Part shown: positions 11,104 through 64,000 of the stretch, piece by piece
Layout of the letters: each line of letters begins with the position of its first letter
Position numbering within the stretch: position 1 is the first letter of the stretch
Assembly (NCBI GenBank): GCA_963771395.1
Contig: CAVYTY010000023.1
Coordinates: 250,964-314,963, forward strand
Source of the DNA: an uncultured Acidobacteriota bacterium
Lineage (GTDB): Bacteria > Acidobacteriota > Vicinamibacteria > Vicinamibacterales > 2-12-FULL-66-21
Direction of reading: 5' to 3'
Length of the DNA: 64,000 nucleotides
Program-made: the position numbers and the translations under genes
The notes under the pieces: generated by a model
What the model was told of the DNA's origin: nothing
Database searches by the model: none
Seen by the model: the letters and a program-made list of their open reading frames with translations, nothing else

Positions 11104-11190
11104 CTCCCCGGACGCCGTGCCGGGTCACCGATACGGCCGCGCCTCGCGGCCGTGACTCAAGACGGTAGCAGATGCGGCTCGAGCGTTCAA

Positions 11191-11510
11191 GATCACGGAT
11201 CTCACGGCCCACGTCATCACCGGACGCGGATTTCGCGGATGACGTTCTCATGGGACGCGGATCTCGCGGATCACACGGATCGCTTCAGGAGCTGGCTGGC
11301 AAACATTGAAGAGGCGTCAGCACAACGACCGGCCGCGCCGCAGGCGCGGTCCAGACGGGCCAGTCTGGCTCCGCCAGGCTGCCGGTCTCTGATCAACACC
11401 GTCCTCCGGAACACCTGACTAATCCGCGAGATCCGCGTCCCGTGAAACGTGATCCGCGAGATCCGCGTCCCGTGAGATCCGTGATCCGCGGCCCGTCAAA
11501 TCGATAGGAT
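11191..11510. repeat. family-B composite B1: left arm (11191-11283) of GGGACGCGGATCTCGCGGATCAC-type units, 137-bp core, and inverted right arm (11421-11510)
   Basis: The left arm contains gggacgcggatctcgcggatcacacggatc. The right arm contains its reverse complement gtgatccgcgagatccgcgtccc twice. About 11 GATC sites. Confidence 0.85.
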
Positions 11511-13641: not shown

Positions 13642-13855
13642 AGGGCTGCATTTTACTCCTATAGCCGGCGGCCCACCTTTCGCCCCAGCGCTCGCAACCG
13701 CTGACCGAATCCTAACCAGTCCCTCATGACCGGCCGCGTGTAACCCGCTACGCTCGTTTTTCCTGGGAATCGGTGTGGCGGGCGGCAGAGCCGGCCGGTC
13801 CACCGAACGCTTTCCATGTCATCCGTATGTCCGCGGTTCAAGAGGTACGAACAAG

Positions 13856-15784: not shown

Positions 15785-15785
15785 T

Positions 15786-15928
15786 GGTTCAAAGGGTTCA
15801 AGAGGTTCAAAAAAAGGTTCAGGGGGTTCAAAAGGTTCAAGAGGTTCAGGGGGTTCAAAAGGTTCAGGGGTTCAAGGGGTTCAAAGGGTTCAGGAGGTTC
15901 ATGAAGGTTCAGAGGGTTTCGGGGTTCG
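15786..15928. repeat. family-A array A1: 14 GGTTCA + 2 degenerate units, dominant 9-bp period, purine spacers
   Basis: Unit starts read at 15786, 15795, 15804, 15816, 15825, 15834, 15843, 15852, 15861, 15869, 15878, 15887, 15896, 15906, 15915, 15923. Confidence 0.95.
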
Positions 15929-16042
15929 CTGTTTTTGCTATTCGGCCGAAGGCGCGCGTTCGCAGATTCTGAAACGATCCTGGCGGGTCGCCCGATATTC
16001 TGAGCAAATCCGCGCGGCATGCTGCGTGCTCCGCGCTTCTGC

Positions 16043-16438
16043 ATGGTGGCCGCTCGGACATTCGAGGAGCTGGATGCCTGGCAGCTGTCCAGTGAGCTCC
16101 GCGACACGATCTTCACGTTGACTGAAACGGGACCTGTTCTCAAGAACCTCAAGTTCCGCGATCAGATACGGGAGTCGTCGAGCTCGCCGCCCGCAAACCT
16201 GTCGGAAGGGTTCGGCCGTTTCAGGCCGCGCGAGTTCGCGCACTATGCGCGAATCGCGCGCGCGTCACTCCTCGAAACGCGCAACCATCTCTTGGATGGG
16301 CGAACGAAGAAGTACTTGAGCGAGGAAGACACCGCCCGCCTCCTCAAACTTCAGGTGCGAGCGACGATAGCAACAACCAGACTGCTCAGATACCTCGAGT
16401 CCTGCAAAGGCAAGCCGCCCACAGGCTGGACGTACTGA
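16043..16438 (+). CDS. four-helix-bundle protein (23S rRNA intervening-sequence protein family, Avd-like)
   Basis: FEELDAWQLSSELRDTIF...PPANLSEGFGRFRPREFAHYARIARASLLETRNHL fits the PF05635/TIGR02436 pattern. Its TGA stop is the first unit of array A2. Confidence 0.85.
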   Translation: MVAARTFEELDAWQLSSELRDTIFTLTETGPVLKNLKFRDQIRESSSSPPANLSEGFGRFRPREFAHYARIARASLLETRNHLLDGRTKKYLSEEDTARLLKLQVRATIATTRLLRYLESCKGKPPTGWTY

Positions 16439-16582
16439 ACCGCTTGAACCTCTCTGAACCTGCCCTGAACCCCTGAACCCCTGAACCTCCTGAACCTCCT
16501 GAACCCCCTTGAACCTCCTGAACCCCCTGAACCCTCTTGAACCCTCTTGAACCCTCTTGAACCCTCTTGAACCTCCTGAACT
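16436..16582. repeat. family-A array A2: 15 TGAACC + 1 degenerate units, inverted relative to A1, pyrimidine spacers
   Basis: Unit starts read at 16436, 16445, 16455, 16466, 16474, 16482, 16491, 16500, 16510, 16519, 16528, 16538, 16548, 16558, 16568, 16577. The array ends at the TAA of the M28 gene. Confidence 0.95.
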
Positions 16583-18243: not shown

Positions 18244-18334
18244 GGGTCATCCATTTTCTAATGCGTGCGCGGAAGCCGCTCACTCGACGAGAAAATCGAG
18301 ATTTGACCCCGGTCAACCGCAGTTGACGGCCTCG
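18244..18334. repeat. hairpin element F, copy 1 (degenerate stem)
   Basis: gggtcatccattttctaatgcgtgcgcggaagccgctcactcgacgagaaaatcgagatttgaccccggtcaaccgcagttgacggcctcgc aligns along its length with 22558-22654. Confidence 0.8.
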
Positions 18335-18422
18335 CGGCTTCATCAAGCTGCCCTCTATACCAGGTGTCAGCAAATGCTCGGGGATGCGCTATCGTAAGGG
18401 AGGTTCGCGAACCGCCCTACCC

Positions 18423-20838: not shown

Positions 20839-20846
20839 CCATCAGC

Positions 20847-20928
20847 GGGGACACTCAACCGGGACAGTCCCCGGGGACACTCAACCGGGACAGTCCCCAG
20901 GGACACTCAAGGTTGAGTGTCCCCGGGG
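20847..20928. repeat. family-C array C1: 2 x GGGGACACTCAACCGGGACAGTCCCC plus a palindromic variant GGGACACTCAAGGTTGAGTGTCCC
   Basis: Units at 20847-20872, 20873-20898 and 20899-20928. Inner palindromes GGGACAGTCCC and CCCCGGGG. Confidence 0.9.
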
Positions 20929-20997
20929 TGATTCGAGCCATAATGGAGGCGTGGCTTGGTGCCATTCGGAATTAAAGAAGGGTAAACGGGAAGGGTT

Positions 20998-22557: not shown

Positions 22558-22654
22558 GGGGTCAGATCTCGATTTTCTAATGCGTGAGCGGAAGCCGCTC
22601 ACGCGATTAGAAAATCGAGATCTGACCCCGGACAACTGCAGTTGACGGCCTCGC
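22558..22654. repeat. hairpin element F, copy 2: about 34-bp stem with one bulge, 3-nt loop, conserved tail
   Basis: ggggtcagatctcgattttctaatgcgtgagcgg aag ccgctcacgcgattagaaaatcgagatctgacccc, then ggacaactgcagttgacggcctcgc. It lies between the convergent NYN and dinB genes. Confidence 0.9.
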
Positions 22655-27167: not shown

Positions 27168-27274
27168 CCGGCAACAAATCCTGACCGTCCGTTCGCTTCT
27201 TTCCCATAGACGAACTATGCGTATGAACGGTTGGCAAACGGCTTGTCAAAGTTCAGGAGATTTCAATTCCAGGA

Positions 27275-27424
27275 GGTTCAGAAGGTTCAGGAGGTTCAAG
27301 AGGGTTCAGAAGGTTCAATCGTTGCTCGCACCTGAATTTGCGAGCTCGCGCCTTCGGCCGAATGGCAAAAACAATGAACCCCTGAACCTCCTGAACCTCT
27401 TGAACCTCGTGAACCCCCTGAACC
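27275..27424. repeat. family-A composite A3: 5 GGTTCA units (27275-27317), 57-bp core, and 6 TGAACC units (27375-27424)
   Basis: Unit starts 27275, 27284, 27293, 27303, 27312 and 27375, 27383, 27392, 27401, 27410, 27419. The core is homologous to the leader of the 16-kb four-helix-bundle gene. Confidence 0.9.
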
Positions 27425-31391: not shown

Positions 31392-31613
31392 ACACGGATC
31401 GCAGCGATTCACGGATCAATGGACGCGGATCACTCGGGTCACAGATCGACGGGACGCGGATCACACGGATCAACAGATCAACGGGACGCGGATCACGCGG
31501 ATCAACAGATCAACGGGGACGCGGATCACACGGATCGACAGATCAACGGGACCGCGGCTCACGCGGATCACAGATCGACGGGTCGCGGCTCACGCGGATC
31601 GCAATCGCGAGCA
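31392..31613. repeat. family-B array B2: six direct about 32-bp units (GGGACGCGGATCACNCGGATCAACAGATCAAC) plus degenerate lead-in
   Basis: Unit starts at about 31421, 31453, 31485, 31518, 31550, 31582. About 16 GATC sites in about 220 bp. Confidence 0.9.
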
Positions 31614-49966: not shown

Positions 49967-50072
49967 TGGACGCGGATCGTCTCAACGGGACGCGGATCTC
50001 GGAGACATATTTCAACGGGACGCGGATCTCGCGGATCGACATTCTCACGTGACGCGGATCTCGCGGATCACA
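49967..50072. repeat. family-B array B3: four direct GACGCGGATC(TCGCGGATC) units
   Basis: Unit starts at about 49969, 49989, 50019, 50051. About 7 GATC sites. It fills the gap between two convergent stops. Confidence 0.85.
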
Positions 50073-51436
50073 TCATGCCGCCTCCCGGGCTTTTCGGTAG
50101 CGTCGGCGTCGTCTGGGGGGCCGCCGGCGGCTTGAGCGTGTAGCGATACGCCTCGATGAGCCATGCGCCGGTGCGCTTCAGCACGAGCGTGACCTGCCCC
50201 TCCATCCTGGGCGTTGGTTTTCCGGACGAATCCAGAACACCGCTCAGTTCCCACTTCCCGTCGGCAACAGCGATGTCCTCTGAGAGACAGCGGATCCTGT
50301 TCAGGGCGAGCGGATGCTGCGACGAGCGGTACTCACGCCGTCTGAAGAGCTGCATGCGGTTGATGGTGATCATCTGCGCGCCCCGTTCGATTGCGCCGTC
50401 CGGGTGGATGATGTCCCCGCCCTTCGACCACAGCGCGCCGAGTTTCTCATAGTCGTGATTGGCCCAGTGGACATAGAACCGCTGCCGAGCGCCGCGATCG
50501 CCCGTTCGTCGCCGGCCGAGCATCGTTCCAGAGGGTCTGGCGCAGCGGCTGCTGAAGTTGTCGCCTCGACGCGTGGCGGTTCCGCCACGGGCGGTGGCGT
50601 GCTCGATCGCGTCGGCAGCGGCGCAGTTCTCAGGGCGGCGATATCCTGCAGGATGCCGCTCGACGAGCGCTTCGACGAACACCCGTCCCTTCTCTCGCGT
50701 CGCGCGCGTCGGATCGCCCCAGGTGCCAGTCGGCGAGTAGGTGCCCGTGCCGCCGCGCTGCCGGGTGAGTCGGCCCCCGCCAGGCGAGGGGGTGTAGTCC
50801 TTGACGGCCTTTCGTCATGTCGACGCTCGACGGATCGATGTAGAGCATCATCGAGGTCTCGACCTCGTCGGCATGCGTCCCGCCTTCCTGCTCGATGAAA
50901 CCCTTGGTCGCAGGATCGAGCCGGCTGCCGAGGTTGGTGTAGCGCATCAGCACGCCATCGGACGCGAGGAGAGCCACCGCGGGGTCGAGGGCGCGTACTG
51001 TCGAGACTCCAGTGTTGAGGACATAGAAACGGCGAGGGCCGTACGCCGACAGCGTCCGGACGACATCGGCGGTCATGTCCCTGGCGGTGGCAAGCGACAG
51101 CGACGTGGAGCCGGGATACTCGAGGAACGCCGGATAGAAGTGATAGGTCAGCGTGGGTGCGACGACAACGGCGGTCGCGTCGACCACGCGCTGTGTCAGA
51201 TAATCGGCGAGCGTCAGATCGTTGCGCAGCTTCAGATGCGGTCCGTGCTCCTTGCTGCCCGCGCCGAGCGGGATGAGGACAACCGTCTCTGGCGTGAGCG
51301 CCGGCTCGGCCTCCTGCCACGTCAGCGATTCGAGCCGCACACTCTTTTCGAGCGGGGCCGGACTGCGGCTCTGACGAGCGGAGGGCGTCGTGGAGAGCCC
51401 CAGGACACAAACAAGCGCGAAGATCTGCAGGCGCAT
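50068..51436 (-). pseudogene. creatininase-family domain fused via a Pro/Ala linker to a SnoaL/DUF4440-like domain; three frame changes (about 50807, 50655, 50480)
   Basis: ...EVETSMMLYIDPSSVDMTK / AVKDYTPSPGGGRLTRQRGGTGTYSPTGTWGDPTRATREKGRVFVEALVER / ILQDIAALRTAPLP...AGDERAIAALGS / RFYVHWANHDYEKLGALW... Confidence 0.6.
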
Positions 51437-51486: not shown

Positions 51487-51713
51487 GTGCAGAGGGTGCT
51501 AAGGTGCCCGGTGCTTAGGGTGCCGGGGTGCCAAGGTGCCCGGTGCCTGGTGCTTAGGGTGCCACGGTGCAAGGGGCCAGAGTGCCAACGGCGTTGGCGC
51601 GTTGTCCGTGACCTGGCACGCTCCGCACCCCAGCTAGGCACGAGGCACGGGGCACGCTTGCACCCCGGCACCCTAAGCACCAGGCACCGAGGCACCTTGG
51701 CACTTTAGCACCC
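51487..51713. repeat. family-D composite: about 11 GGTGCY units (51487-51573), about 40-bp core, and inverted GGCAC/GCACC units (51613-51713)
   Basis: ggtgctaaggtgcccggtgcttagggtgccggggtgccaaggtgcc... is mirrored by ...ggcaccctaagcaccaggcaccgaggcaccttggcac. Confidence 0.9.
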
Positions 51714-52559: not shown

Positions 52560-54376
52560 CCCCACCGGTTCCGTACGTCGAGAACGCCGCGCGCCACGCC
52601 AGGGACGGCGAAAAGGAGGCGCAGCTTTCGAAAGTGATCGCGCGGCTGCGGCTGACGACCTTCCTTGTCGCGCGCGGCGATTCTCGTGTGGTCGCTCTCG
52701 CACGGCGGGACGCGGTTGCAGCTCTGGACGGCCTTCCTGCTGTTCGTTGTGTTCGGCGTCCTCGTTGTCTGGCACGCCCGCGTCGACGAGCGCGTGGCCT
52801 GGCACGGCGCGCTGAGGCTGGTGAACGTGCGGGCGCTGGCTCGTCGCGCGCGCGACTGGCCTGCGCTGCCCGACGCGGAGGCCCCTACGGGCCTCGATCT
52901 GGAGGATCACCCCTACGCGCTCGACCTCGATCTCTTCGGGCGCGCATCGCTCTTTCAATGGCTCGGTCCCGCGGCGACTCCTCGTGGACGCACGACGCTC
53001 GCGACGTGGCTGCTCCGTCCCTCACCTCGCGCGGAGGTGATCGAGCGTCAGGACGCCGTCGCGCAGTTGGCGGCGCTCGATGACTGGCGCCTGACGTTCG
53101 ATGCCCACGGCGTGCTCGCCTCGAGTGCCCGGCAGAACGAGATCGACTGGTTCCTCGCCTGGGCCGAAGGGCCCGATCTCTTCGGCCGGAAGACAGGTCT
53201 CCTTCGAGCCGTTGTCCTCCCGCTCACCGGGGCGTTGTGGATCCTTATCGCCGGCGAAGTAACCGGCTGGATGCCGATCGGTCTCTGGCCCATTCCGATG
53301 GTGGCCGGCATCGTCCTGTCGTTTGCCACGGCCGAGCGCCTTCAGCAGACGTTCAATCGCGCCGGAGCCGGCCAGTCTGCGCTCGGCCGTTACGCGGGGC
53401 TCTTCGAGCACGCCATCACCGCGCCGGCTGCTTCGTCGCGCCTCCAGGCCCTCCTCGACAGGCTGTCGGCAGAGGGACAGCCAGCACCAGCATGCATGCG
53501 CCGGCTGAATCGGATCGTCGGGTTCGGCGAGCTGCGGCAGAGCTCCGATCCTGCATTTTCCCGTGCAGGCGCTGACTCTGTGGGATTTCCACGTGCTCTT
53601 CGCGCTCGAGCGGTGGCGGCGGACGAGCGGACGCCGGGTCAGAGTCTGGCTCGACGCCCTGGGCGAGCTCGATGCGCTCGGGCGGCTCGCGCACTGCGCG
53701 TCGCGACAATCCCGAGTGGGCCGTCCCATCGTTCGGGCCTGTTCGGCGAGGTGACGGCGGCCGGCATCGGCCACCCGCTCATCTCTGACGATCGGCGCGT
53801 CGCCAACGACGTCACGGTTGGTCCGGCCGGAACGGTCCTCCTCGTCACCGGGTCGAACATGTCGGGGAAGAGCACGCTGCTCCGCTCGATCGGTCTCAAC
53901 ATCGTGCTCGCCCAGGCGGGCGGCGTGCGTCTGCGCGCGACAGATGTCCCTGCCCGAGTGCGATCTCCAGACGAGCATCAGCGTGCACGACTCGCTCGAG
54001 CGCGGCCTGTCGTACTTCATGGCCGCCCTCGCGCGCCTCAAAGGCGTCGTCGACGCGGCGCAGCACGAGCGCCAGGGACGCGATGCTCGTGTATCTGCTC
54101 GACGAGATCCTGCAGGGCACCAACAGCGTGGAGCGGAGCATCGCCGTCCGCGCGGTGACGCGCCATCTGCTCGAGGCCGGCGCCATCGGCGCGATGACCA
54201 CGCACGACCTCGGTCTCGCGGAAGAAGAGCCGATGAAGAGCGCCGCGCAGTTCGTCCACTTCTCGGAGACGTTCGACGCGGACGGCACGATGCGATTCGA
54301 CTACGCGCTGAAGCCGGGCCTGGCCACGTCGCGCAACGCCTTGCGGCTGATGCAGATGATTGGGATCGAGCTGTGA
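52556..54376 (+). pseudogene. MutS-related (MutS domain V ATPase, membrane-anchored) gene with about six frameshifts
   Basis: The GTG overlaps the methyltransferase stop. The sense hops frames at about 52670, 53543, 53700, 53735, 53915 and 54080. It contains LVTGSNMSGKSTLLRSIGLNIVLAQAGG, SVHDSLERGLSYFMAAL and LLDEILQGTNS. Confidence 0.7.
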
Positions 54377-54478
54377 CAGTCGGCAGTCGGCAGTCGTCGG
54401 AATCGAGAGTCACAGTCGTCAGTCTCAGTCGACGGTCAGAGTCGACAGTCAGAGTCGACAGTCAGCAGTCGACAGTCA
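54377..54478. repeat. family-E array: CAGTCGG / GTCGACAGTCAGA units, direct
   Basis: cagtcggcagtcggcagtcgtcgg...gtcgacggtcagagtcgacagtcagagtcgacagtcagcagtcgacagtcacg. Contains four GTCGAC palindromes. Confidence 0.85.
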
Positions 54479-54564
54479 CGCGCTCAGCGGCGAAAAGCTC
54501 TGCGCGCATGACGGATTTGTTTCGACGAGAGTGCCTCGGATTGGTAGGAAGGTCCATACTGTTG

Positions 54565-56180
54565 TTGGCGCCAGTGCTTAGTCGACCCCGCTTCATCGTC
54601 TTCCTGTCGGTCCTCCTCTTGCTCGGACAGCGTTCCGGCCGGCCAGGGCCAGCCGCGATATGACCTGCTGATCGCCGGCGGTCAGGTCGTCGACGGCACC
54701 GGCGCTCCGGCCCGGCGGGCGGATGTCGCGATCAAGGCCGGGCGCATCGCGGCCATCGGCACCATCGCGAAGATCGACGCGCGGGAGGTGATCGACGCTG
54801 CCGGCCTCGTCGTCGCGCCGGGTTTCATCGACGTCCACACCCACGCCGACGACCTCATCGACCAGCCGCGTGGCGAGAACTTCGTCCGCATGGGCGTCAC
54901 GACCATCGTGGCCGGAAACTGCGGCTCGTCTTCTCTCGATGTCGGCAAGGCGTTCGACGGCGGTCGAACAGGTCGGCGCGTCGGTGAACTTCGCGACGCT
55001 CATCGGGCACAACACGGTGCGTCGTGACGTGATGGGGACTGCGAACCGCAACCCGACGATTCCCGAGCTCGACAAGATGAAGGCGCTCGTCTGGCGCGGA
55101 ATGGCGGACGGCGCCGTAGGCTTCTCAACCGGCCTCCAGTACGTGCCAGGCACCTATGCCCAGACGTGGGAGATCATCGAGCTCGCGCGCGTCGCCGGCA
55201 ACGAAGGCGGCGTGTACGCCTCCCACATGCGCAACGAGGGCACGGCGCTCGAAGAAGCCGTCACCGAAACGATCCGCGTCGGTGAGATGGCGGGCTGCCG
55301 CGTGCAGATTTCTCATCTGAAGGTCGACAGCCCCAGCCGCTGGGGTGCGAGCGCGAAGGCACTTGCGCTCATCGACGATGCCCGGAAGCGCGGCATCATC
55401 GTCGAGGCAGACCAGTATGCGTACACGGCGGCGAGCTCGTCGCTCGGCATCCGCTTCCCCTCGTGGGTGCTCGAAGGCGGTCAGGCGCAGATCAACACGC
55501 GCCTCAACGACGCGGCCATGTGGGCGAAGATCAGGAACGAGATCCGGGCGCTGCTCGCCGAGCGCGGCCTCGCGGATCTGTCCTTCGCTGTCGTGGCGTC
55601 ATATCGTGCGGATCCCTCGCTCAACGGCTTGTCGATGAAGCAGGTGGCGGCAAAGCTGAAAGGGACGGAGTCAGCCGAGGCGCAGCTCGAGGCGGCGCGG
55701 GAGATGATGCTCGCCGGTGGGGCATCGATGGTCTATCACTTCATGTCCGACGACGACATCGATCGAATCATGAAGCACCCGCAGGTCGCTGTCGCGTCGG
55801 ACAGCTCGGTGCTGACGATGGGGGAGGGCGTGCCGCACCCGCGCGGCTACGGCAACAACGCAAGAGTGCTGGGCGAATACGTGCGCGTGCGGAAGGTGAT
55901 CACTCTCGAGGAAGCGGTCCGCAAAATGACGTCGCTCCCCGCGGATCAGTTTCGATTCGCTGAACGCGGCCGGATCGCTGCGGGCGATTTCGCAGACATC
56001 GTGGTCTTCGATCGCGCGACGGTGGGGGACGCGGCGACATTCGACAAGCCGCACGCGTACGCGCGCGGCATCGCCTATGTCCTGGTCAATGGTGTGCCCG
56101 TCATCAAGAACGGTGAGCACACCGGCGCGAAGCCGGGAAAGGCGCTGACGTTGGGGAAAGCACAGACGCCCAAGCGCTGA
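54565..56180 (+). pseudogene. second D-aminoacylase-family gene, two frameshifts (about 54640 and 54955)
   Basis: Signal-like RFIVFLSVLLLLGQ / YDLLIAGGQVVDGTG...PGFIDVHTHADD...GNCGSSSLDVGKAFD / AVEQVGASVNFATLIGHNTV... to the end. Confidence 0.7.
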
Positions 56181-56261
56181 ACCCTGAACCCTTGAACCCT
56201 CTGAACCTTTTTGAACCCCTGAACCGTTTGAACCTTTTGAACCCTCTGAACCTTTTGAACC
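56178..56261. repeat. family-A array A4: 10 TGAACC units
   Basis: Unit starts 56178, 56185, 56193, 56202, 56212, 56220, 56229, 56238, 56247, 56256. The first unit contains the stop codon of the preceding gene. Confidence 0.95.
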
Positions 56262-56276
56262 CTGTTTAATCATCCG

Positions 56277-56795
56277 TCAGTCATCAGCCACAGCGAAATA
56301 GATCGCGACCGGCGCGAGCACGAGCCACACGCCAATCATCAGCGCGGGCAGCATCCAGCCGCCCGCGAGCAACGCCGAGGGCGCCTTGATGGCCGCCATG
56401 TCGGACGATGCGGCGTCCCTGACGCCGGAGACCCATCCGCCGAGCAGGCCCCCGAACCAGGGTGACAGCGCGACGAGCGCGGCGACGGTCAGCGTGATTG
56501 CGGCCACCGAGGCCACCACCTGCGCGACAGTGATCGGCCGCGCGGCTTCCCGCGCCGCTTCCTGACGCGCGCGCATCTGCGCCCGCCACCACATCACCGC
56601 GGACGAGGGGATCCGCGCGTCACCGGGTTCGTCGTTCCGGTCGTCGAGCAGCGCCCCCGCGACGTCGACGACGTCGGCGCACAGTGCGCACGCGGCCACG
56701 TGGGCGCGGAGGTCCTCGCCGGCCCGGCCGGGCCAGCGCCCGCTCGTCAGCGCATCGAGCACGTCCTGCTCACGACAGCAGTCAACGATCTTCAC
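56277..56795 (-). CDS. membrane anti-sigma factor (zf-HC2 type)
   Basis: HVAACALCADVV zinc-finger motif plus C-terminal transmembrane helices. The ATGA overlaps the sigma-factor stop. Confidence 0.8.
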   Translation of the reverse strand: MKIVDCCREQDVLDALTSGRWPGRAGEDLRAHVAACALCADVVDVAGALLDDRNDEPGDARIPSSAVMWWRAQMRARQEAAREAARPITVAQVVASVAAITLTVAALVALSPWFGGLLGGWVSGVRDAASSDMAAIKAPSALLAGGWMLPALMIGVWLVLAPVAIYFAVADD

Positions 56796-57379
56796 GAGTG
56801 GCCTCCGTCGGTATGCGCCGCCGCAGGACGCAGTATCCCCGCGAGCTTCCGCCGCGCGCGGAACAGCAGGAGCTTCACGCTCCCGGTCTTGACTCCGAGC
56901 GTCTGGGCGATTTCGGTGTGCGGATGACCCTGCGCATACGCCAGCCAGAGCAACGCCCGCTCGCGCGGCCGCAGGCGATCCATCGCCCGCCGCAGATCGG
57001 TGCGCCGGACGCTGGCCTCGGCAAGGTCACCACCAGTCGCGGGAATAGTGCTCTGATCGTGGTCCGGCAGCGGCACGGTGTGCCATCTCCTGGCGCGTCT
57101 GCGGCCGTCCCGCACGAGGTTGGTGGCGATCTGGAAGAGATAGGCACGGCGGTGCGACTCGCTTTCCCAGTGGCCGCGCGTGCGCAGGAAACGGTAGTAG
57201 CTCTCCTGCAGCAGGTCGTCGGCGACTTGCGCGTCGCACGTCATCCTGGACAGGTAGTTCCAGAGCGACCGGGCGGTTCGGTCGTAGAACGCGCGGAACG
57301 CTTCTTCGTCCATCTCGAAGGCCACGTCGACCTCTGCAGCCTCGAGCCGTTCAACGTCGGAGAACGTCAGATCGCGCAT
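56792..57379 (-). CDS. ECF sigma factor
   Basis: FRAFYDRTARSLWNYL...DLLQESYYRF (region 2) and LLWLAYAQGHPHTEIAQTLGVKTGSVKLLLFRARRKL (region 4). Confidence 0.9.
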   Translation of the reverse strand: MRDLTFSDVERLEAAEVDVAFEMDEEAFRAFYDRTARSLWNYLSRMTCDAQVADDLLQESYYRFLRTRGHWESESHRRAYLFQIATNLVRDGRRRARRWHTVPLPDHDQSTIPATGGDLAEASVRRTDLRRAMDRLRPRERALLWLAYAQGHPHTEIAQTLGVKTGSVKLLLFRARRKLAGILRPAAAHTDGGHS

Positions 57380-57383
57380 GTCG

Positions 57384-58325
57384 TCACTGTCCCGCGCCTT
57401 CGATGTGCTCGCGCGGCGGAACGGCCACGGCCGGTTCGAAGAGGCCGAGCCGCCGCGAGAGGAGGAATGACGCGCCGGCCGACACGACGAAGCCGGCGCC
57501 AACCGCCAGCGCGAGCACCCCGATGGAGAAGAGCGGCTGGGCCACTTCTTCGAGCACGCGGTTGCTCACGAAGAGCAGCCCGAGCCCGAGGGCGGCGAGC
57601 ACGACACCGATCTGCACGGACCACAAGATGCGGCTCAAGGGCGCACCGACCTGTCGCACGGGAGCCGCGGGAGCCTCGAGCGACAGCGGCGCCGATTCCA
57701 GGAATCGGCGGCCCACGGGGGTCTCCATGTAGGCCAGCAGATCCTCGTTGGTCGTAAAACGATCCAGCAATTTCTTGTGCACCTCGTTATGGACCTTTGA
57801 CGTGCGATTCCACCGCCTGTATTCGACGAGCGTTCGGATGATCCAGATCAATGCGCCGGTGCCGACGAGGAAAACGCCCGAGATGGCGAAGAAATCGAAG
57901 AGATCGCGCCAGACGCGCACCGCCTGCGATTCCCGCGTCTCGGGCGGCGAGGGGACCCAGAATTCCATCGGCCCGATGTGCTCGAAGAAGAAGCCGGGAG
58001 AGCTGCGGATGTCGGGGTGCTGCTTCAGAAACGCCGCGAGGCCCGGGTACGGGGCCAGGTAGGACTCGTTACTCAGGAGCGACGGGTCGGTCCGCAGGAC
58101 ACGGCCAACCGCGGGCGGAAGCTTCTTGAGGAGCTCCTCGAGGCTTTCCCGCGTCTCCCTGGCGTCCTGGTCCTGGTTGATGAACACCTGCGGGGCCGCT
58201 GGGGTAGCTCCGGGACGCTCGACCGGCGCGACGGCACCCTGCTGAGCCGAGGCCAGGTTCGGGACCGACAGGGCGAGAACGAGGGCCGCGAACGCCGAGC
58301 GGGTCGAAATCCGGTAGGAAAGCAT
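57384..58325 (-). CDS. membrane protein of unknown function, first gene of the ECF sigma operon
   Basis: Signal peptide plus three to four transmembrane helices. No family recognised. Confidence 0.6.
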   Translation of the reverse strand: MLSYRISTRSAFAALVLALSVPNLASAQQGAVAPVERPGATPAAPQVFINQDQDARETRESLEELLKKLPPAVGRVLRTDPSLLSNESYLAPYPGLAAFLKQHPDIRSSPGFFFEHIGPMEFWVPSPPETRESQAVRVWRDLFDFFAISGVFLVGTGALIWIIRTLVEYRRWNRTSKVHNEVHKKLLDRFTTNEDLLAYMETPVGRRFLESAPLSLEAPAAPVRQVGAPLSRILWSVQIGVVLAALGLGLLFVSNRVLEEVAQPLFSIGVLALAVGAGFVVSAGASFLLSRRLGLFEPAVAVPPREHIEGAGQ

Positions 58326-58396
58326 TAGTAAGTAGGCTCCTTACCTACACCTACCTACTACGCACCGGACCGATGGGGGTTAACACTGACAGAGTC

Positions 58397-58499
58397 GGTT
58401 CAAAGGGTTCAAGGGGTTCAAAGGGTTCAAAGGTTCAGGGTTCAGGAGGTTCAGGCCATGAACCTTGAACCTCTGAATCCTACCTGAACCCTTTGAACC
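58397..58499. repeat. family-A composite A5: 7 GGTTCA units abutting 5 TGAACC units around a 5-nt centre
   Basis: Unit starts 58397, 58406, 58415, 58424, 58432, 58439, 58448; centre ggcca; then 58459, 58466, 58474 (degenerate), 58485, 58494. Confidence 0.95.
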
Positions 58500-58507
58500 G
58501 ACTGGAT

Positions 58508-58933
58508 TCAGTAAACAGTCCAAATCCCCGGCGACGCCAGCTCGAGGATGTGTCCTTCCGGGTCACGAAAATAGAGGCTGCGGCCGCCGAGGTCCCACCG
58601 GCGATCGCGCTCGATGGTCACGCCGTGTGCGTGGAGTCTGGCCGCCCACGCGTCCATATCCGACTCGGCCGTTGAGAAAGCGATGTGCTGCGGGCCAGTC
58701 GCGTCGTGCGGAACATCGGCGAGGTTGGTCGAGGCGCCGCGCTTGCACACCAGCAGCACCTGCCTGCCGCCGACGCCCATCGCCGTCAGGCGCTCGTCGA
58801 GCGCGATGGTCTCGAAGCCGAGAACGGTCCCGTAGAACCGCACCGCCCGGGGCACGTCCTCCACGTACAGCGCTACTTCGACGATGCCGCCAACGCTGGG
58901 TGCGGTGGAGATGGCGGGTGTACCATGTCTCAA
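58508..58933 (-). CDS. VOC/glyoxalase-family protein
   Basis: IVEVALYVEDVPRAVRFYGTVLGF...HIAFS...LYFRDPEGHILEL. The proposed TTG start overlaps the aminotransferase stop (TTGA). Confidence 0.7.
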   Translation of the reverse strand: MRHGTPAISTAPSVGGIVEVALYVEDVPRAVRFYGTVLGFETIALDERLTAMGVGGRQVLLVCKRGASTNLADVPHDATGPQHIAFSTAESDMDAWAARLHAHGVTIERDRRWDLGGRSLYFRDPEGHILELASPGIWTVY

Positions 58934-60048
58934 TCGAACAGCGGCGTCAGCTCGCTCGCAATGCGCCGTAAGCCCTCGCGAAGGAACTCCTCGCGGCCGC
59001 CGAGCCAGATTCGCAGATAGCCTTGGAGCCCGACGTGCGATCCGGGCACGATGAGCGTGCTCTGATTGACCCGCACGCGTTCGGCGACGTCGAGGCTGTT
59101 GATGTCCGCATCGTACCTCACGAGCGCGATGGCTCCGGCCTGTGGCTCGCGCCAGGTGAGCCGTCCACCGAGGCGGCCGATCCACTCGCGGGCGATGGGA
59201 AGGTTGTGGGTGAGGATGGCTCGCGTGCGCGCATAGCAGCGCTCGCGATTCTCCGGCTCGACGGCGACGCGCGCGAGCCGGTCGGACAGCTTGTTGGGCC
59301 CGATCGTGAGGTAGTCGTGCTGCGACCAGCACTCCGATACGAGCGCGCGCGGGCCGACGATCCATCCCACGCGGACGCCGGGAATCCCATAGGCCTTCGA
59401 GAGGCCGCTCGTGACGATCACACGGTCGCTCAGTCCCCAGAAGCTCCTCGTGCGATCACCGTCGATCTCCGCGCCGAGATACACCTCGTCGGCGAGAATC
59501 CACGTGTTCGTGGACTCGCACCGGCTCACGATCCGTTCCATCGCGCTCGGCGAAAGGATCGAGCCGGTTGGGTTGTTGGGGTTCGAGAGATAGAGCAGGC
59601 GCGCCCGAGGTGTCACCGCGCGGTCGAACTCGTCCCAGTCGGGCTCCCAGCCCGTATCGTGTCGCAGGGTAAACGTTCGAACAGTCGCGCCGAGGCTGCG
59701 CGCAACGCCTGGCATCTGCATGTAGTTGGGCACTTCCATGGCCACCTCGTCGCCCGGCTGGAGCTGGCTCAGGGCGATCAGGTAGTTGGCTTCGGAGGTG
59801 CCGTTGGTGACTTCGATCTGCTCGACGTCCGCGCCCGGGTAGATAGCCGCGAGGCGCTCACGGAGCTCGATCGTGCCGTTCGACTGACTGTAGCCGAGCG
59901 GCTGATCCATGAAGGCGTCGAGGTCGAAGCCCATCTCGACAAGCTCCCGGAGCGTCAGCGGCCGCACGCCGCTCTCGCTCATGTCGTAGTCGACGAGGTT
60001 CTCCCAGGTCGACTGCATGCGCTCCATCGCAAATGGTTCAAGAGGCAT
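58930..60048 (-). CDS. PLP-dependent aminotransferase (class I/II)
   Basis: 372 aa with NPNNPTG and SGLSKAYGIPGVRVGW (the PLP-lysine region). Confidence 0.9.
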   Translation of the reverse strand: MPLEPFAMERMQSTWENLVDYDMSESGVRPLTLRELVEMGFDLDAFMDQPLGYSQSNGTIELRERLAAIYPGADVEQIEVTNGTSEANYLIALSQLQPGDEVAMEVPNYMQMPGVARSLGATVRTFTLRHDTGWEPDWDEFDRAVTPRARLLYLSNPNNPTGSILSPSAMERIVSRCESTNTWILADEVYLGAEIDGDRTRSFWGLSDRVIVTSGLSKAYGIPGVRVGWIVGPRALVSECWSQHDYLTIGPNKLSDRLARVAVEPENRERCYARTRAILTHNLPIAREWIGRLGGRLTWREPQAGAIALVRYDADINSLDVAERVRVNQSTLIVPGSHVGLQGYLRIWLGGREEFLREGLRRIASELTPLFD

Positions 60049-60104
60049 TGATTTGGTTCAAGAGGTTCAAGAGGTTCAGGTGGTTCAATAGGTTCAAGGG
60101 TTCT
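60035..60104. repeat. family-A array A6: 6 GGTTCA + 1 degenerate unit spanning an intra-operon spacer
   Basis: Unit starts 60035, 60055, 60064, 60073, 60082, 60091, 60099. The outer units lie inside the flanking coding sequences. Confidence 0.9.
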
Positions 60105-61048
60105 TGGACCATTCGGCGAGCTTCTCTACGCCAATGTTGCCGCCGCTTACGATTGCGACGATCGGCCCCTCGATGCGAATCGCGGCGTCGAGCGCGCCGC
60201 TGAGCACGGCTGCGGTCGTGGCGGCGCCGCTCGGCTCGGCGACGAGGTGGGCGTTGGCGAAGATCCACAGCACGGCCGCGATGATGTCCTTGTCCTCAAC
60301 CGTGATCACCTGGTCGACGAACTTCTGGACGTGCGCGAACGTGAGGTCTCCCGGTCTGACGGGCATCAGCCCGTCGGCGACGGTCTCGGTCTTCGGAAGC
60401 GTGACCGGTTGGCCGGCGTCCACCGACGTTTTCATCTTCGCAGCGCCCGCCGGTTCGACGCCGATGACGACCACATCGGGCCGGGATTGCTTGATGGCGG
60501 CCGCGACGCCGGCGACGAGGCCTCCCCCACCGACCGGCACGAGCACGGCGGCGACGTCCGGCCGCTGCTCGAGGATCTCGAGGCCGGCCGTGCCCTGTCC
60601 GGCGATGATCCACTGGTGATCGAACGGCGGGACCATGGTGAGTCCGCGCCTGGAGGCTTCGGCCTCGGCGCGCGCGCGTCGATCCGCCGACGTCGTGCCC
60701 GCAAAAACCACCTCTGCGCCGAATGCTCGCGCGCCGTCGACCTTGATCTTCGGCGCGGTCGTGGGCATGACGACGACCGCGGGCGCTCCGAGCGTGCGGG
60801 CTGCGAGCGCCATCGCCTGGCCGTGATTGCCCGACGAGTACGTGATGACGCCGGCGGCACGCTGGGCGGGATCGAGTTGCGCGACCATGTTGTACGCGCC
60901 GCGGATCTTGAACGCACCGGCAGGCTGAAGGCTCTCGCACTTGAGGAAGAACGGTCGTCTCGCCGGTCCGGAGACGTCGACGAGCGGTGTCACGCGCGCG
61001 ATTGGCGAGATGCGGCGCGGCCGCGGCTCGGATCTCTTCCAGGGTCAC
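60094..61048 (-). CDS. threonine/serine dehydratase (PLP, PALP family) with N-terminal frameshift(s)
   Basis: FFLKCESLQPAGAFKIRGA...SSGNHGQAMA...GGGGLVAG. The N-terminal text VTLEEIRAAAA / RISPIARVTPL changes frame near 61015. Confidence 0.8.
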
Positions 61049-61215
61049 GAATGTCGGTCGTCGCTGAGATCTCTGTCATTTAACGGTCCCGTCCCGATCG
61101 AAGACGATAACCTGATCGAACCGGGCTCCGCTGGCGCCGGTGCGAGAACGATCCTCGCCTACCTGACGTGCCGTCAATCATAATCCGCGTCTAGAATGCC
61201 CGAGACCCAAAGACC

Positions 61216-62975
61216 ATGAGGTCTGCCAACCTGCTCGCGACGGCGTGCCTGCTGCTGGCGGCGCTCCCGGCGGCGCAACCCGTGCCCCGGCCGGCGGAGC
61301 CGTTCGTGCGCGTCGGCGTGTCGTACCCGGCCGGGCTCTCGCGCGACCGCGAGCGGGCGGCGGCCGATCTCGAGGCGATTAACACGCTGGGGTTCAACAG
61401 CATTCGGGTGCCGATCGATTGGGCGGACGCCGAGCCGGCCCGCGGCCAGTACCGACTCGAGGCGCTGGACCAGACGCTGGAGCTCGCCGGCCAGCGCGGG
61501 CCTGAAGGTCGTGCTGCAGCTCGACACGGAGTCCATGCCGGCGTGGCTGCTTCGTCGCTACCCGGACGGCAGGTTTGTGTCGGCGTCCAGGGCGGAGGGC
61601 CCGCGGCTCGAGCGCGCGTGTCTCGATCATCCCGGTGTGCGCGCGGATGTCGAGGCCTACGTCGGTGCCGCAAGCCACCGCGCCGCGCGGCACGCTGCCT
61701 GGCAGGCGATCGACGTCGGCAGCGAGCTCGAGAATGGCTTCTGCGGCTGTCCCCACACCGCGCGTCGCTTTCGCGAGTGGCTGAAGGCGACGTTCGGCTC
61801 CGACGACGAGACCTGGCGCGCTCGCCGCAGCCGATCGAGCGGCGTTCGTCGCGCTCGAGCGGCGGGACCATCTCGCCCTCGTCGCCGCTGCCGCGTCGGC
61901 TCGCGGTGTTCGTTCCTTGACCAGCTCGGCCGGCGCGTCGTCTGTCATTCGACAGCTCTTCAGTGAGCCTCCAGGCCAGGACGACTGGCTGATGACGACC
62001 GTGGTCGATCACTACGGCATGGCGGTGCCGCCGGAGCTCGCTCCAGCCGCGTCGCTCGCGCCGGTGCAGCTGGCGCTGGCGCTCGACGGCATTCGTTCGG
62101 CGGCCCGGCGATAAGGGCTGGCTGATGACGGACCGTACCGTGACGGGTCGGTACGGCGGAGGTGCCGTCAGCTGCGGCCTTGCGGCTGCGGACCTGGGCG
62201 GCGTTGTCACGTGGCGCTCGCGGCGTGACCTACGACGATTGGCGTGCGACCGGTCCAGGCGCGAGCAGCGGCCTGGTCAGCTCGGACGGAACGATCAGCG
62301 ATCGGGCGCGGGCGGCGGGCGCGTTGGCGCGCGTCATCGGCCGCAACCCGGCCCTCTTCGCGCCGCTTCGGCCACGGGCCGCGAAGGTCGCGATCGCGTA
62401 CGACCCACGTCCGCCGATCGAGGGGTGCCGAGCTCGACGTCAGCGGCAAAGGCCTTTCAACTGAGCGTCTATCGAGCGTTGTTCGAGCGAAACATCCAGG
62501 TGGACTTCATCCATCTCGACGAGATTGCGGCCGGGATGGCGAGCCGGTACAGCGTGGTGTGTGTCGGCTCGGCAGTCGACGCTGCCGGAGCCTGCGGTTG
62601 CTGGCGTTGCGGGCGTATGTCGCGGCGGGCGGGACCCTGGTTGACGGCACGACCACGCCGACCGGCGAGCAGATCGTCCAGATCGCGGCCCGGGCCGGCG
62701 TCGCCCCGGAGGTTCGGATAGAGGGTGCGACGGGCCCGGTCGAAACCCGCTTTCTGGAGTCATCCGACGTCCTCATGCTCGTCGGCCTGAACCACGCGGA
62801 CACGATGCAGCGGGTCAAGATGACATTCACGCCCGACACGCAGGAGGCCATCTGGCAGAACATGGAGACCGGAGCGGCGGTCAACTTCATCGCCGGCCCA
62901 GAGGGCCCGACCTACACCTACGCGTTCGGGCCCAGCGACGCCCTGATCCTGATGATTAGAAAGAACTTGCGCTAA
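61216..62975 (+). pseudogene. GH42-like beta-galactosidase gene, at least five frame changes
   Basis: GFNSIRVPIDWADAEPARGQYRLEALDQTLELAGQRG / LKVVLQLDTESMPAWLL...GFCGCPHTARRFREWLKATFGS / ... / FQLSVYRALFERNIQVDFIHLDEI / ...AGGTLVDG... are spread over three frames. Confidence 0.6.
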
Positions 62976-63020
62976 ACACGCTCTCCAGAGAGCTTCCGCG
63001 ACCGCGCAATAGCTGAGCTC

Positions 63021-63074
63021 GGGGACACTCAACCGGGACAGTCCCCGGGGACACTCAAGCCGGGACTAGTCCCC
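63021..63074. repeat. family-C array C2: GGGGACACTCAACCGGGACAGTCCCC + GGGGACACTCAAGCCGGGACTAGTCCCC
   Basis: The first unit is identical to the C1 units. The second carries the palindrome GGGACTAGTCCC. Confidence 0.9.
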
Positions 63075-63119
63075 GGACGACTGGTCGACACGCCAAGGAG
63101 AATTGAAGCGGCTTCCGGC

Positions 63120-63615
63120 TCAGCGCAGGGCCCGGCTGTCGATGAGATCGTGGTCGCCAGGCGGCTCGAACCCCGCGAGCCTGACCGCCAGCGCGATCTG
63201 CGCCCAGTGGCGGATCTCGTGGACGAGGATGTGGAACAGCAGTTTCCTCTGCGACATCGCCAGCGTCTGGTCCTGAAAGGCGATCGGCCGCGGCTCGTTC
63301 GCCTCGTCTTCGTCGATCAACTCCGCAAATTGCTCGAGCTCCCGCCGCACCGACGCGCCGTAGTCGAAGAGTGGAGGCGCGTTGTTGCCCGTCAACCCGG
63401 TCGATGTCGAGACCGGATCGCCCGTCAGCCGCTGGAGATGGCGCCGCTCGATCAGAAACACATGATCGATGAGCTTGCCGACTGTCGGGATCTGCCCCTC
63501 CCGGCTGTAGCGTCACGTCCATCGCGTCGGGATGCGACTGGAGCCAGCGCCGCCACTTGTCACGTTCGTCGCTCGTGTAACGCAGGAGCTCGTCGTAGGA
63601 CAGGTCAAGTGTCAT
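63120..63615 (-). pseudogene. DinB-family protein gene with one frameshift (about 63495, in a G run)
   Basis: MTLDLSYDELLRYTSDERDKWRRWLQSHPDAMDVTLQPGG / QIPTVGKLIDHVFLIERRHLQRL...HEIRHWAQIA. Confidence 0.6.
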
Positions 63616-63697
63616 GCAGCTGTCTCATCGGTAGTCTGTCGTCATCCGTGTGTCGGTGGCCCGTGTTTTCCGCCGCTCATGTAGTCTATCAAGTGGG

Positions 63698-64000
63698 ATG
63701 TTCTCCGAGCGTGTGCCACCGAGCCTCGAGCCCAACCGGATCACGCAGGCCGTTCGCCGCGCGCGCGCGGCCGGGCGGTCCCTGCTCGATCTGACGATCA
63801 CGAATCCGACGACGGCCGGCTTCGAGTACTCCATCATCGATGCTGGACGTTCTGACATCTCCGGACGCGCTGAGGTACGACCCGCAGCCCTTCGGCCTGC
63901 TCGATGCCCGACGCGCAGTCGCGTGCGACTACGCTCGTCGCGGAATCGCGGCCACCCCCGATCGCATCGTCCTCACCGCCAGCACGAGCGAGGCGTACTC
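63698..64000 (+). pseudogene. 5' part of a PLP aminotransferase (AlaA-like) gene, frameshift near 63835; continues beyond the window
   Basis: MFSERVPPSLEPNRITQAVRRARAAGRSLLDLTITNPTTAGFEY / MLDVLTSPDALRYDPQPFGLLDARRAVACDYARRGIAATPDRIVLTASTSEAY. Confidence 0.6.

Follow-up and report, generated by a model that had tools for sequence, protein, structure and literature searches.

Two arrays of short tandem repeats, A4 and A5, flank a three-gene operon for an extracytoplasmic function (ECF) sigma factor in a 64,000-nucleotide (nt) stretch of contig CAVYTY010000023.1 from an uncultured Acidobacteriota bacterium, which is referred to as the window throughout. Each of them belongs independently to a hypervariable class of intergenic repeats and neither is the end of a gene module, and A5 is placed between a stop codon and a conserved, predicted ECF promoter. 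The reading that we regard as probable, with some reserve, is that the two arrays are independent copies within a hypervariable repeat class of the Vicinamibacterales, that the operon is fixed and not their cargo, and that A5 may act as a boundary towards upstream transcription. This class looks both genome-wide and lineage-wide in the Vicinamibacterales (Acidobacteriota), with A5 representing an inverted pair devoid of an open reading frame (ORF), and with A4 and a further array, A6, representing solo arms.

Sequence and folding of A4 and A5

A4 (56178..56261, no strand assigned) is a solo array of 10 exact TGAACC units in the plus-strand reading, separated by pyrimidine spacers of 1-4 nt, and both the extent and the unit count reported by the initial annotation were borne out by the sequence and a hexamer search. 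The array fills the convergent gap from the amidohydrolase stop to the anti-sigma stop, and the amidohydrolase stop codon is itself the TGA (56178-56180) of the first TGAACC unit. A4 folds to -4.3 kcal/mol on the plus strand and -2.8 kcal/mol on the minus strand, both weaker than shuffled sequences (z = +5.1), hence unstructured, and its plus strand consists of 32% C and 13% G.

A5 (58393..58503 with its AGTC/GACT flanks, no strand assigned) is an ORF-less pair of inverted arrays that can fold into a hairpin of about 50 bp. Its left arm contains seven exact GGTTCA units with their purine spacers (58397-58453), its centre is the 5-nt loop GGCCA (58454-58458), and its right arm contains exact TGAACC units at 58459, 58466, 58485 and 58494 together with a degenerate TGAATC near 58475. 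The seven left units and the 5-nt centre therefore stand as previously recorded, whereas the right arm holds four exact units and one degenerate unit instead of five exact ones. The palindrome reaches 4 nt past the arrays (AGTC...GACT). The segment 58385-58510 folds to -67 kcal/mol as RNA, as compared to -33.1 +/- 3.6 for shuffles (z = -9.5), and to -39.8 kcal/mol as DNA (z = -9.0), in agreement with the earlier view of A5 as a strong candidate for a hairpin or cruciform. Its position was also described correctly: A5 lies exactly between the stop codon of the glyoxalase/VOC gene, 4 nt past which it begins, and the operon promoter, the -35 element of which starts 7 nt after the hairpin.

The window contains 96 copies of the hexamer GGTTCA, whereas dinucleotide shuffles contain 20.4 +/- 4.9 and none of 100 reaches that number. 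Furthermore, A4 and A5 are not assembly artefacts, because an independent JGI contig (L001) has arrays at the same two sites.

The operon locus in related genomes

The locus was compared with eight contigs (L001-L008) that encode 67-88%-identical homologues of the 313-amino-acid (aa) protein specified by the first operon gene. Gene order is the same in all eight, running from PALP (a PLP-dependent enzyme) and aminotransferase through VOC, where this gene is called, to the membrane protein, the ECF sigma factor, the anti-sigma candidate and a convergent amidohydrolase, which makes the operon a fixed chromosomal unit. No VOC gene was called in four relatives (L004, L005, L006 and L008). L001 is the closest relative, collinear with window positions 54479-64000 at 86.5% nt identity over 9.6 kb, and it is the only one of the eight with GGTTCA arrays at the A4 and A5 sites; these share the loop (TGGCC) and the outer flanks with the window and differ from it in copy numbers and spacers.

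The other relatives carry different sequences at the same places. The A5 site holds CAGAGGC and CAGGGAT repeats in L002 and L003, inverted arrays of the GCGGCTC type in L004 and of CGGCGTT/AGCGCCG in L005, three GATCCCC units in L006, about 13 GGGGCTC units facing GAGCCCC units in L007, and a plain 9-bp hairpin in L008. The A4 site is occupied by an unstructured solo array in L001 (z = +4.2) and by strong hairpins of other sequence in L004 and L005. These positions are a hotspot for repeats and hairpins, at which no given sequence or hairpin is obligatory.

When the orthologous solo arrays are laid side by side (L001 8047-8125 and window 56178-56261), not one of the 19 units in the two arrays departs from the hexamer, the flanks are 13.5% diverged, and the spacers are wholly different, with an 18-nt alternation of aag and ggg in L001. 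Because A4-type solo arrays are unstructured, their perfect core points to a constraint other than hairpin pairing.

The initial annotation had raised the possibility that A4 and the left half of A5 bracket the operon and that whole gene modules are bracketed or mobilised. On such an explanation, A4 and the A5 left arm would be inverted terminal repeats that mobilise or invert the sigma operon as a composite transposon or an invertible segment. The two are indeed 82% complementary across 50 nt, and inverted arrays of the same family (family A, with GGTTCA/TGAACC as its hexamer) bracket a gene elsewhere in the window, in a segment that is inverted in the related locus L204. However, a composite transposon should vary in location or presence among relatives, and the operon keeps the same neighbours and orientation in all eight loci, only one of which has family-A arrays there. 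No transposase or recombinase was found among the ORFs or Pfam matches between 54.8 and 61 kb, and no direct repeat indicative of a target-site duplication flanks the A4-A5 segment beyond the array units themselves. In addition, A5 is self-contained and A4 is a separate solo array, so that the A5 arms will pair with each other locally in preference to A4, which lies at a distance of 2.1 kb. By estimate, arrays of all families occupy about 13 of the window's intergenic regions, which number about 45; six of these hold family A, and two family-A arrays flanking an operon are thus not unexpected. Mobilisation of the sigma operon is hardly credible on these grounds, and the likeness drawn between A4/A5 and the arrays A1/A2 holds on one side only: the four-helix-bundle gene between A1 and A2 is truly and recurrently bracketed, whereas the sigma operon is not. 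The outcome that the initial annotation named as refuting mobilisation, an operon syntenic and array-free in all relatives, is borne out as to synteny, which extends over the eight loci, but most of the sites hold other repeats. Comparison with miniature inverted-repeat transposable elements reveals inverted arms and many copies; the copies here are unequal in length and in their spacers, a target-site duplication is not apparent, and the difference between empty and filled array sites is one of wholesale replacement. A practical caution follows: in these genomes, arrays on both sides of an operon are no mark of a mobile unit, as roughly one third of the intergenic regions carry such arrays.

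Predicted promoter and possible transcript boundary

The promoter predicted next to A5 (58359..58385, minus strand) is of the ECF type and probably autoregulated. It comprises a -35 block, TGTTAACC, at 58378-58385 and a -10 block, GCGTA, at 58359-58363, in the layout TGTTAACC-N14-GCGTA, and is followed by a Shine-Dalgarno GGAG at 58337-58340 (minus strand) and the ATG. In an alignment of the 78 nt upstream of the first gene from eight genomes, both blocks are invariant and the 14-nt spacer between them is variable, and the full pattern occurs once in the window against 0.01 expected. The assignment to the ECF type is based on its AAC-N16-CGT geometry, which fits the AAC-N16/17-CGT consensus of known ECF promoters. 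A consensus scan at A4 and A5 detected no sigma-70 promoter and no intrinsic terminator.

The location of A5 might suggest that it is a canonical Rho-independent terminator of the VOC transcript, as it is a perfect, GC-containing stem that starts 4 nt past the VOC stop. Such terminators combine a short GC-rich stem-loop with a U-tract, and intrinsic-terminator stems are far shorter than about 50 bp, the length of the A5 stem. Beyond the stem the transcribed strand reads ...UGAACCGACUCUGUCAGUGUUAACC, with no T-run and hence no U-tract, and A5 is therefore not a canonical intrinsic terminator; together with the empty consensus scan, this makes the terminator explanation very improbable.

As a transcript boundary or insulator of another kind, A5 is plausible but unproven. 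Read-through RNA from the PALP-aminotransferase-VOC genes would fold A5 into a duplex of about 50 bp, 7 nt before the ECF promoter, and this duplex could act as a roadblock to read-through, as a block to 3' exonucleases or as a substrate of RNase III. As a result, the autoregulated sigma operon might be kept apart from upstream transcription. On the other side of the operon, A4 would be transcribed at the end of the amidohydrolase message as a C-rich, G-poor, unstructured RNA, which could favour the loading of Rho and thereby reduce antisense transcription entering the operon.

Two further RNA candidates in this region were rejected. A hairpin around the Shine-Dalgarno sequence of the first gene (58326-58357, minus strand) is conserved in sequence, but RNAalifold gives it -5.7 kcal/mol and no compensatory pairs, and a snoRNA at 56.1-58.6 kb is a chance, sub-threshold Rfam match (E = 0.14). 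No Rfam family was found in the whole window at gathering thresholds.

Unit, stop codons and polarity of family A

Within the window, family A is found at six intergenic sites (A1-A6), each 0-15 nt from a stop codon, so that many of its copies stand in intergenic DNA beside the stop of an upstream ORF. Besides A4 and A5 these are A1 (15786-15911, 14 GGTTCA units), A2 (16435-16581, 15 TGAACC units), the inverted pair A3 (27270..27424, with five GGTTCA units, a 56-nt loop and six TGAACC units), and the solo array A6 (60055..60103, five GGTTCA units), which lies between the PALP and aminotransferase genes. The unit consists of an invariant hexamer and a spacer of 1-6 nt, most often 3 nt (36 of 58 spacers), which gives a modal unit of 9 nt and a period of 7-12 nt; the spacers are 94% purine on the GGTTCA strand (174 of 185 bases). 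The arrangement is a head-to-tail tandem of 6-9-nt units, with Tandem Repeats Finder periods of 7-10, and is not strictly heptameric in view of the variable spacers. Both copy number and sequence vary, as seen between the window and L001 at both operon-flanking sites and in the other motifs present in L002-L007. G-quadruplex formation was considered and ruled out, as the family-A unit has only GG.

For three genes, one of them the amidohydrolase gene, the arrays supply the stop codon itself. The PALP stop codon is the TGA (60094-60096) of a TGAACC unit in A6, and that of the four-helix-bundle gene is the TGA (16436-16438) of another such unit. Moreover, the C-terminal 1-5 residues of PALP in relatives depend on which array is present; in L005, a GACTGTC array encodes the ending ...KADCRL. 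At the site orthologous to A6, L001 and L004 have TGAACC arrays and L005 has one of the GACTGTC type, and the two genes overlap without an array in L002. By crude gene calls on the window and 23 Acidobacteriota loci, a stop codon is no more than 3 nt away from about 16 of 43 array clusters; since the caller, based on GC content at third codon positions, mislabels some arrays as lying within genes, these context counts are approximate.

A further regularity is the polarity of the arms. In all 11 inverted pairs of family A, the GGTTCA arm comes first and the TGAACC arm second, a G-rich-arm-first rule that holds on either strand and with which the inverted pairs of other families agree; this survey covered the window, L001, L004, L005, L007, L010, L052, L093, L097, L117, L203 and L204. 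When a genome collection was scanned for three GGTTCA units at 9-nt spacing, at least 113 loci were found and at least 26 Acidobacteriota/Vicinamibacterales contigs, in a scan that is contaminated by coding Gly-Ser-X repeats of Streptomyces and other taxa and is not a census.

A neutral origin has to be weighed against these observations. The arrays could be slippage expansions in 3' intergenic DNA under weak selection, without any role in transcription, and the hairpins could result from tolerated inverted copies. Among relatives the arrays turn over wholesale in motif, copy number and presence, also where the flanks are 95% identical; in some of these genomes the genes at the same sites are hardly separated at all, and the arrays expand exactly to the coding ends and a few codons into them. 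In addition, heptamer over-representation has been credited to polymerase slippage (PMC4692102). Duplication alone would, however, copy the spacers along with the hexamer, and the hexamer here is perfect beside spacers that differ in sequence and length. One motif recurs at many sites in several genomes, the polarity of the arms is strict, and the arrays are tied to one gene family, the four-helix-bundle genes. An explanation by neutral by-products alone is for these reasons rather unlikely.

Alternatively, GGTTCA/TGAACC could be recognised by a protein that acts in trans and binds DNA or RNA, perhaps the four-helix-bundle protein, with the arrays serving as multivalent platforms. This would account for a hexamer that stays the same beside changing spacers, also in A4, which is unstructured and so not constrained by pairing, and the identity of four-helix-bundle proteins to that of the window tracks the motif, with 41-51% identical ones mostly beside GGTTC-N and 32-40% identical ones mostly beside other motifs. 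Yet the co-variation of gene and motif could simply follow host phylogeny, a 9-nt period with variable spacing fits helical phasing poorly, and several unrelated motifs coexist in one genome. We therefore judge the binding-site explanation improbable. A strict order of the arms and a core that stays constant beside varying purine spacers nevertheless hint at a directional activity that adds or recognises repeats, and not at plain slippage.

Four-helix-bundle cassettes

The full element of the window, A1-4HB-A2 (15786..16581, plus strand), consists of arrays around an S23p/Avd-like TIGR02436 four-helix-bundle (4HB) gene of 139 aa (16019-16438, plus strand; TIGR02436 E = 6.3e-18). This protein also matches Xanthomonas XCC0516 (PDB 2GSC) with E = 6.8e-10, and on both grounds it belongs to the S23p family, whose members are encoded in 23S rRNA intervening sequences (IVS). 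The same arrays bracket four-helix-bundle genes in L052 (2946-3628), L129, L203 (6620-7345) and L204 (8799-9457). L052, another Acidobacteria metagenome-assembled genome, encodes a homologue with 46% identity, and L203, with 85% nt identity, has the orthologous cassette in the same form.

A metagenome scan for TIGR02436-like genes extended this association. It yielded 80 related genes (L122-L201), 70 of them with usable flanks, and in 49 of the 70 the 300 nt upstream share an inverted repeat with the 300 nt downstream. Among loci with full flanks, flanking inverted repeats were found in 33 of 47, as opposed to none of 90 control windows shifted by 800 nt. The arms of these metagenomic cassettes are tandem arrays whose motif varies by locus, with a GC content of 0.40-0.68; examples include GGTTCA, GGTTCC, GGTTCT, GGTGCC, GATCGTTCG, GTGCTGA and GGTCTAA. 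The genes nearest to that of the window (41-51% identity) also include some with GGTGC/GCACC-type arrays, and the motifs of the more distant ones (32-40%) include GTGCTGA and AGGACTG.

The inverted pair A3 looks like a cassette minus its gene, since its loop (27319-27374) retains 56 nt homologous to the leader that separates A1 from the four-helix-bundle gene (15912-15969); aligned from 15905-15969 to 27334-27398, the two regions are 85% complementary over 65 nt. Related genomes illustrate how such elements change. In L204, the orientation of the four-helix-bundle gene with respect to the flanking Cu-oxidase gene is reversed and the GGTTCA-then-TGAACC order is kept, which is the outcome expected from recombination between inverted arrays. 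In L202, at 95-97% identity, the four-helix-bundle gene, one array arm and the neighbouring Cu-oxidase gene have been lost, and a 16-unit solo GGTTCA array remains against the stop codon of an M28 peptidase gene (L202 11581-11722, corresponding to window 13713-16581). Two further array sites of L202 carry wholly different sequence at 95% identity. The states of L204 and L202 thus identify the arrays as sites of inversion, deletion and wholesale replacement, and the L202 deletion, which left a solo array behind, indicates that a solo array, A4 for instance, can be what remains of a pair.

Taken together, the complete form of the element would be a TIGR02436 four-helix-bundle gene enclosed in a hairpin loop, the architecture of a 23S rRNA intervening sequence. 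Solo arms such as A4 and A6 would be of the kind left after deletion of one arm and the adjacent DNA, and the arrays in general could originate and turn over by slippage, recombination and deletion.

Weighing the favoured reading

Several observations weigh against the reading in which A4 and A5 are turnover products of such a repeat class, with A5 as a boundary of the sigma operon. Termination, RNase III cleavage and the folding of the A5 hairpin in the cell are predictions from the sequence, and A5 has neither a U-tract nor a match to a terminator consensus. Of the eight orthologous A5 sites, only four are significantly more stable than shuffles (z = -8.7, -8.8, -4.6 and -7.3). The hairpin at this site is small or nearly lacking in L006 and L008, which means that a long hairpin is not required, and just 16 and 9 nt separate the two stop codons at the A4 site of L007 and L008, so that nothing is required at that site either. 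Functions of A4 and A5 are thus plausible but dispensable, because some relatives are without any such element. Slippage alone is insufficient to explain an invariant hexamer with variable spacers, even in a solo array, and the strict polarity of the arms is likewise beyond it. A5 bears no trace of a former four-helix-bundle gene, and the reverse order of events, with genes inserting into pre-existing hairpins, is equally compatible with the data. Finally, the divergent GH42/PALP region of L004 (3139-3560) and L005 (3437-3625) is occupied by inverted GGCTTTA/GGCTCAA arrays and GGGGATC heptamers, and the array class is therefore not restricted to the 3' ends of genes.

Genes of the operon and its neighbourhood

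The three minus-strand genes were described correctly by the initial annotation as encoding a membrane protein, an ECF sigma factor and an anti-sigma candidate, as judged from ORFs and Pfam/NCBIfam matches. The first gene (57384..58325, minus strand) encodes the 313-aa secreted or membrane protein, which has no family assignment and is conserved across the Vicinamibacterales. An exact look-up of its sequence returned no record and homologues were used instead; 1380 of them were found at E <= 0.001, the named ones all from Vicinamibacterales, and Pfam gave just a weak, sub-threshold match to DUF6249. The second gene (56792..57382, minus strand) encodes an ECF-type sigma-70 factor of 196 aa with Sigma70_r2 (E = 1.3e-9) and Sigma70_r4_2 (E = 5.6e-15) domains, which scores 84.8 bits against TIGR02937 (sigma70-ECF; cutoff 42.9). 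The third (56277..56795, minus strand) encodes the anti-sigma candidate, a 172-aa protein with an N-terminal H-x3-C-x2-C sequence (HVAACALC), the zinc-anti-sigma motif, and a hydrophobic C-terminal half; it has no Pfam or NCBIfam match. In five of the eight relatives a gene of 164-172 aa occupies the anti-sigma position, and the calls are fragmented or shorter in L004, L006 and L008. The genes are tightly packed, with a 1-nt gap between the membrane protein and sigma genes and a 4-nt overlap at the anti-sigma start. Sigma regions 2 and 4, an overlapping HxxxCxxC gene and a predicted AAC-N16-CGT promoter together characterise an ECF sigma/anti-sigma operon.

Upstream, the glyoxalase/VOC gene (58508..58930, minus strand; E = 1.7e-15), with its stop at 58508 and an approximate start, is the last gene of the co-directional PALP-aminotransferase-VOC cluster, and downstream the operon faces the convergent amidohydrolase gene. 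In a nearby MutS_V-domain gene (52665-54376), the coding sequence is seemingly split over several frames, and the protein is an intact 553-609 aa in relatives; the frameshifts point to a pseudogene or to long-read assembly errors.

Other repeats in the window

At least four further repeat families occupy other intergenic sites of the window. One of them has a unit of about 32 nt (GGGACGCGGATC-type; …GGGACGCGGATCNCGCGGATCA…) and is found at 11185-11490, 31409-31600 and 49980-50073, with inverted pairs at 11185-11281 and 11422-11490 and with arrays between convergent genes. A GGGACACTCAACC/GGGACAGTCCCC family is present at 20846-20941 and 63020-63076, and a GGTGCC/GGCACC inverted pair lies in a divergent region at 51493-51712. 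Heptamers of the GACAGTC type are found at 54375-54479 and also at other sites in L005; in L001, this type flanks the A5 equivalent as CACTGACGCAGTC...GACTCTGTCAGTG. In addition, an 86-nt direct repeat with 91% identity occurs at 18250-18335 and 22569-22654, 4.3 kb apart, which is present in L202 too and contains an internal palindrome, TTTTCTAATGCGTG...GAAAATCGA.

Significance

Heptamer-type repeats (cyanobacterial short tandemly repeated repetitive sequences, STRR, and the Xanthomonas GGGAATC repeats) and the S23p proteins of intervening sequences have each been without a function for more than 30 years. The link between array stems and four-helix-bundle loops (33 of 47 against 0 of 90) offers a concrete handle on both the repeats and the proteins, and it makes testable whether the protein binds its own arrays, whether RNase III cuts the stems and whether the hairpins set transcript boundaries. 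No literature linking TIGR02436/PF05635 genes to flanking tandem arrays outside rRNA was found in a search that mostly did not extend to subscription journals, which is weak evidence; the link to four-helix-bundle genes may not have been described before, and the repeat class itself appears to resemble known intergenic heptamer repeats. As a tentative generalisation, four-helix-bundle hairpin cassettes with inverted arrays might be a widespread, apparently undescribed, IVS-like element that in many phyla is located between protein-coding genes, with A5- and A4-type arrays as decay products that would make up much of the Vicinamibacterales repeat load and possibly the Xanthomonas and cyanobacterial heptamers as well.

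Comparison with known systems

Repetitive extragenic palindromic (REP) sequences and bacterial interspersed mosaic elements (BIME) of enterobacteria are imperfect palindromes of about 35 nt, spread by REP-associated tyrosine transposases (RAYT; Y1 transposases) and located at the 3' ends of genes or between operon genes. They share with the present arrays this location, an abundance of extragenic palindromic repeats and an effect, shown or proposed, on mRNA stability or read-through. The arrays here differ in that a 6-nt core is repeated in tandem in 6-9-nt units, and no RAYT gene was seen near them, in an analysis that included no search aimed at RAYT.

Cyanobacterial STRR, reportedly first described by Mazel et al. 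in 1990, are likewise tandem repeats of the 7-bp class that lie in intergenic DNA and form hairpins. Their hairpins occur between genes of one transcription unit, such as hupS-hupL, and transcript stabilisation or translational coupling has been proposed as their role (PMC2670836). Motifs and lineage differ here, and neither a four-helix-bundle link nor a strict polarity is described for STRR in the literature found. The TAACTGA direct repeats of marine Beggiatoaceae, cyanobacteria and Bacteroidetes are situated mostly 1 nt before start codons, in 2-6 copies that are almost never inverted (PMC4679880). They too are short, intergenic and TGA-containing, place a stop in every frame and may extend back over the end of the preceding ORF, whereas the arrays described here adjoin stop codons, reach up to 16 copies and typically form inverted pairs.

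The heptamers of Xanthomonas (GGGAATC) and Nostoc (GGGGAYT) are located near upstream stop codons, include 70-75 convergent inverted pairs and vary among relatives, and G-quadruplex formation has been proposed for the Xanthomonas repeats (PMC4692102). Both systems have a short G-rich tandem unit that is overwhelmingly intergenic, closest to the stop of the upstream ORF and sometimes overlapping it, with many convergent inverted pairs able to form stem-loops and with length and sequence that vary among close relatives. The present repeats differ from them in host phylum, in their hexamer with a variable spacer and a period of 7-12 nt (mode 9), in having no G-quadruplex potential and in the coexistence of several unrelated motif families in one genome. 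Site turnover is also much higher here than in Xanthomonas, two species of which conserve 83% of sites (PMC4692102).

The closest architecture is that of the 23S rRNA intervening sequences of Coxiella and Leptospira, in which an S23p ORF lies in the loop of a stem cut by RNase III, with tandem heptamers of variable number (PMC4990558). The elements described here lie outside rRNA, as the window contains no rRNA and the flanks are protein-coding genes; furthermore, their stems consist wholly of tandem arrays and are much longer, and A5 and A4 have no ORF. What the two systems share are terminal inverted repeats that form a long stem, a TIGR02436/S23p ORF in the loop, variable tandem arrays and versions that lack the ORF, with A1-4HB-A2 as the full form in the window and A5 and A3 as its ORF-less form.

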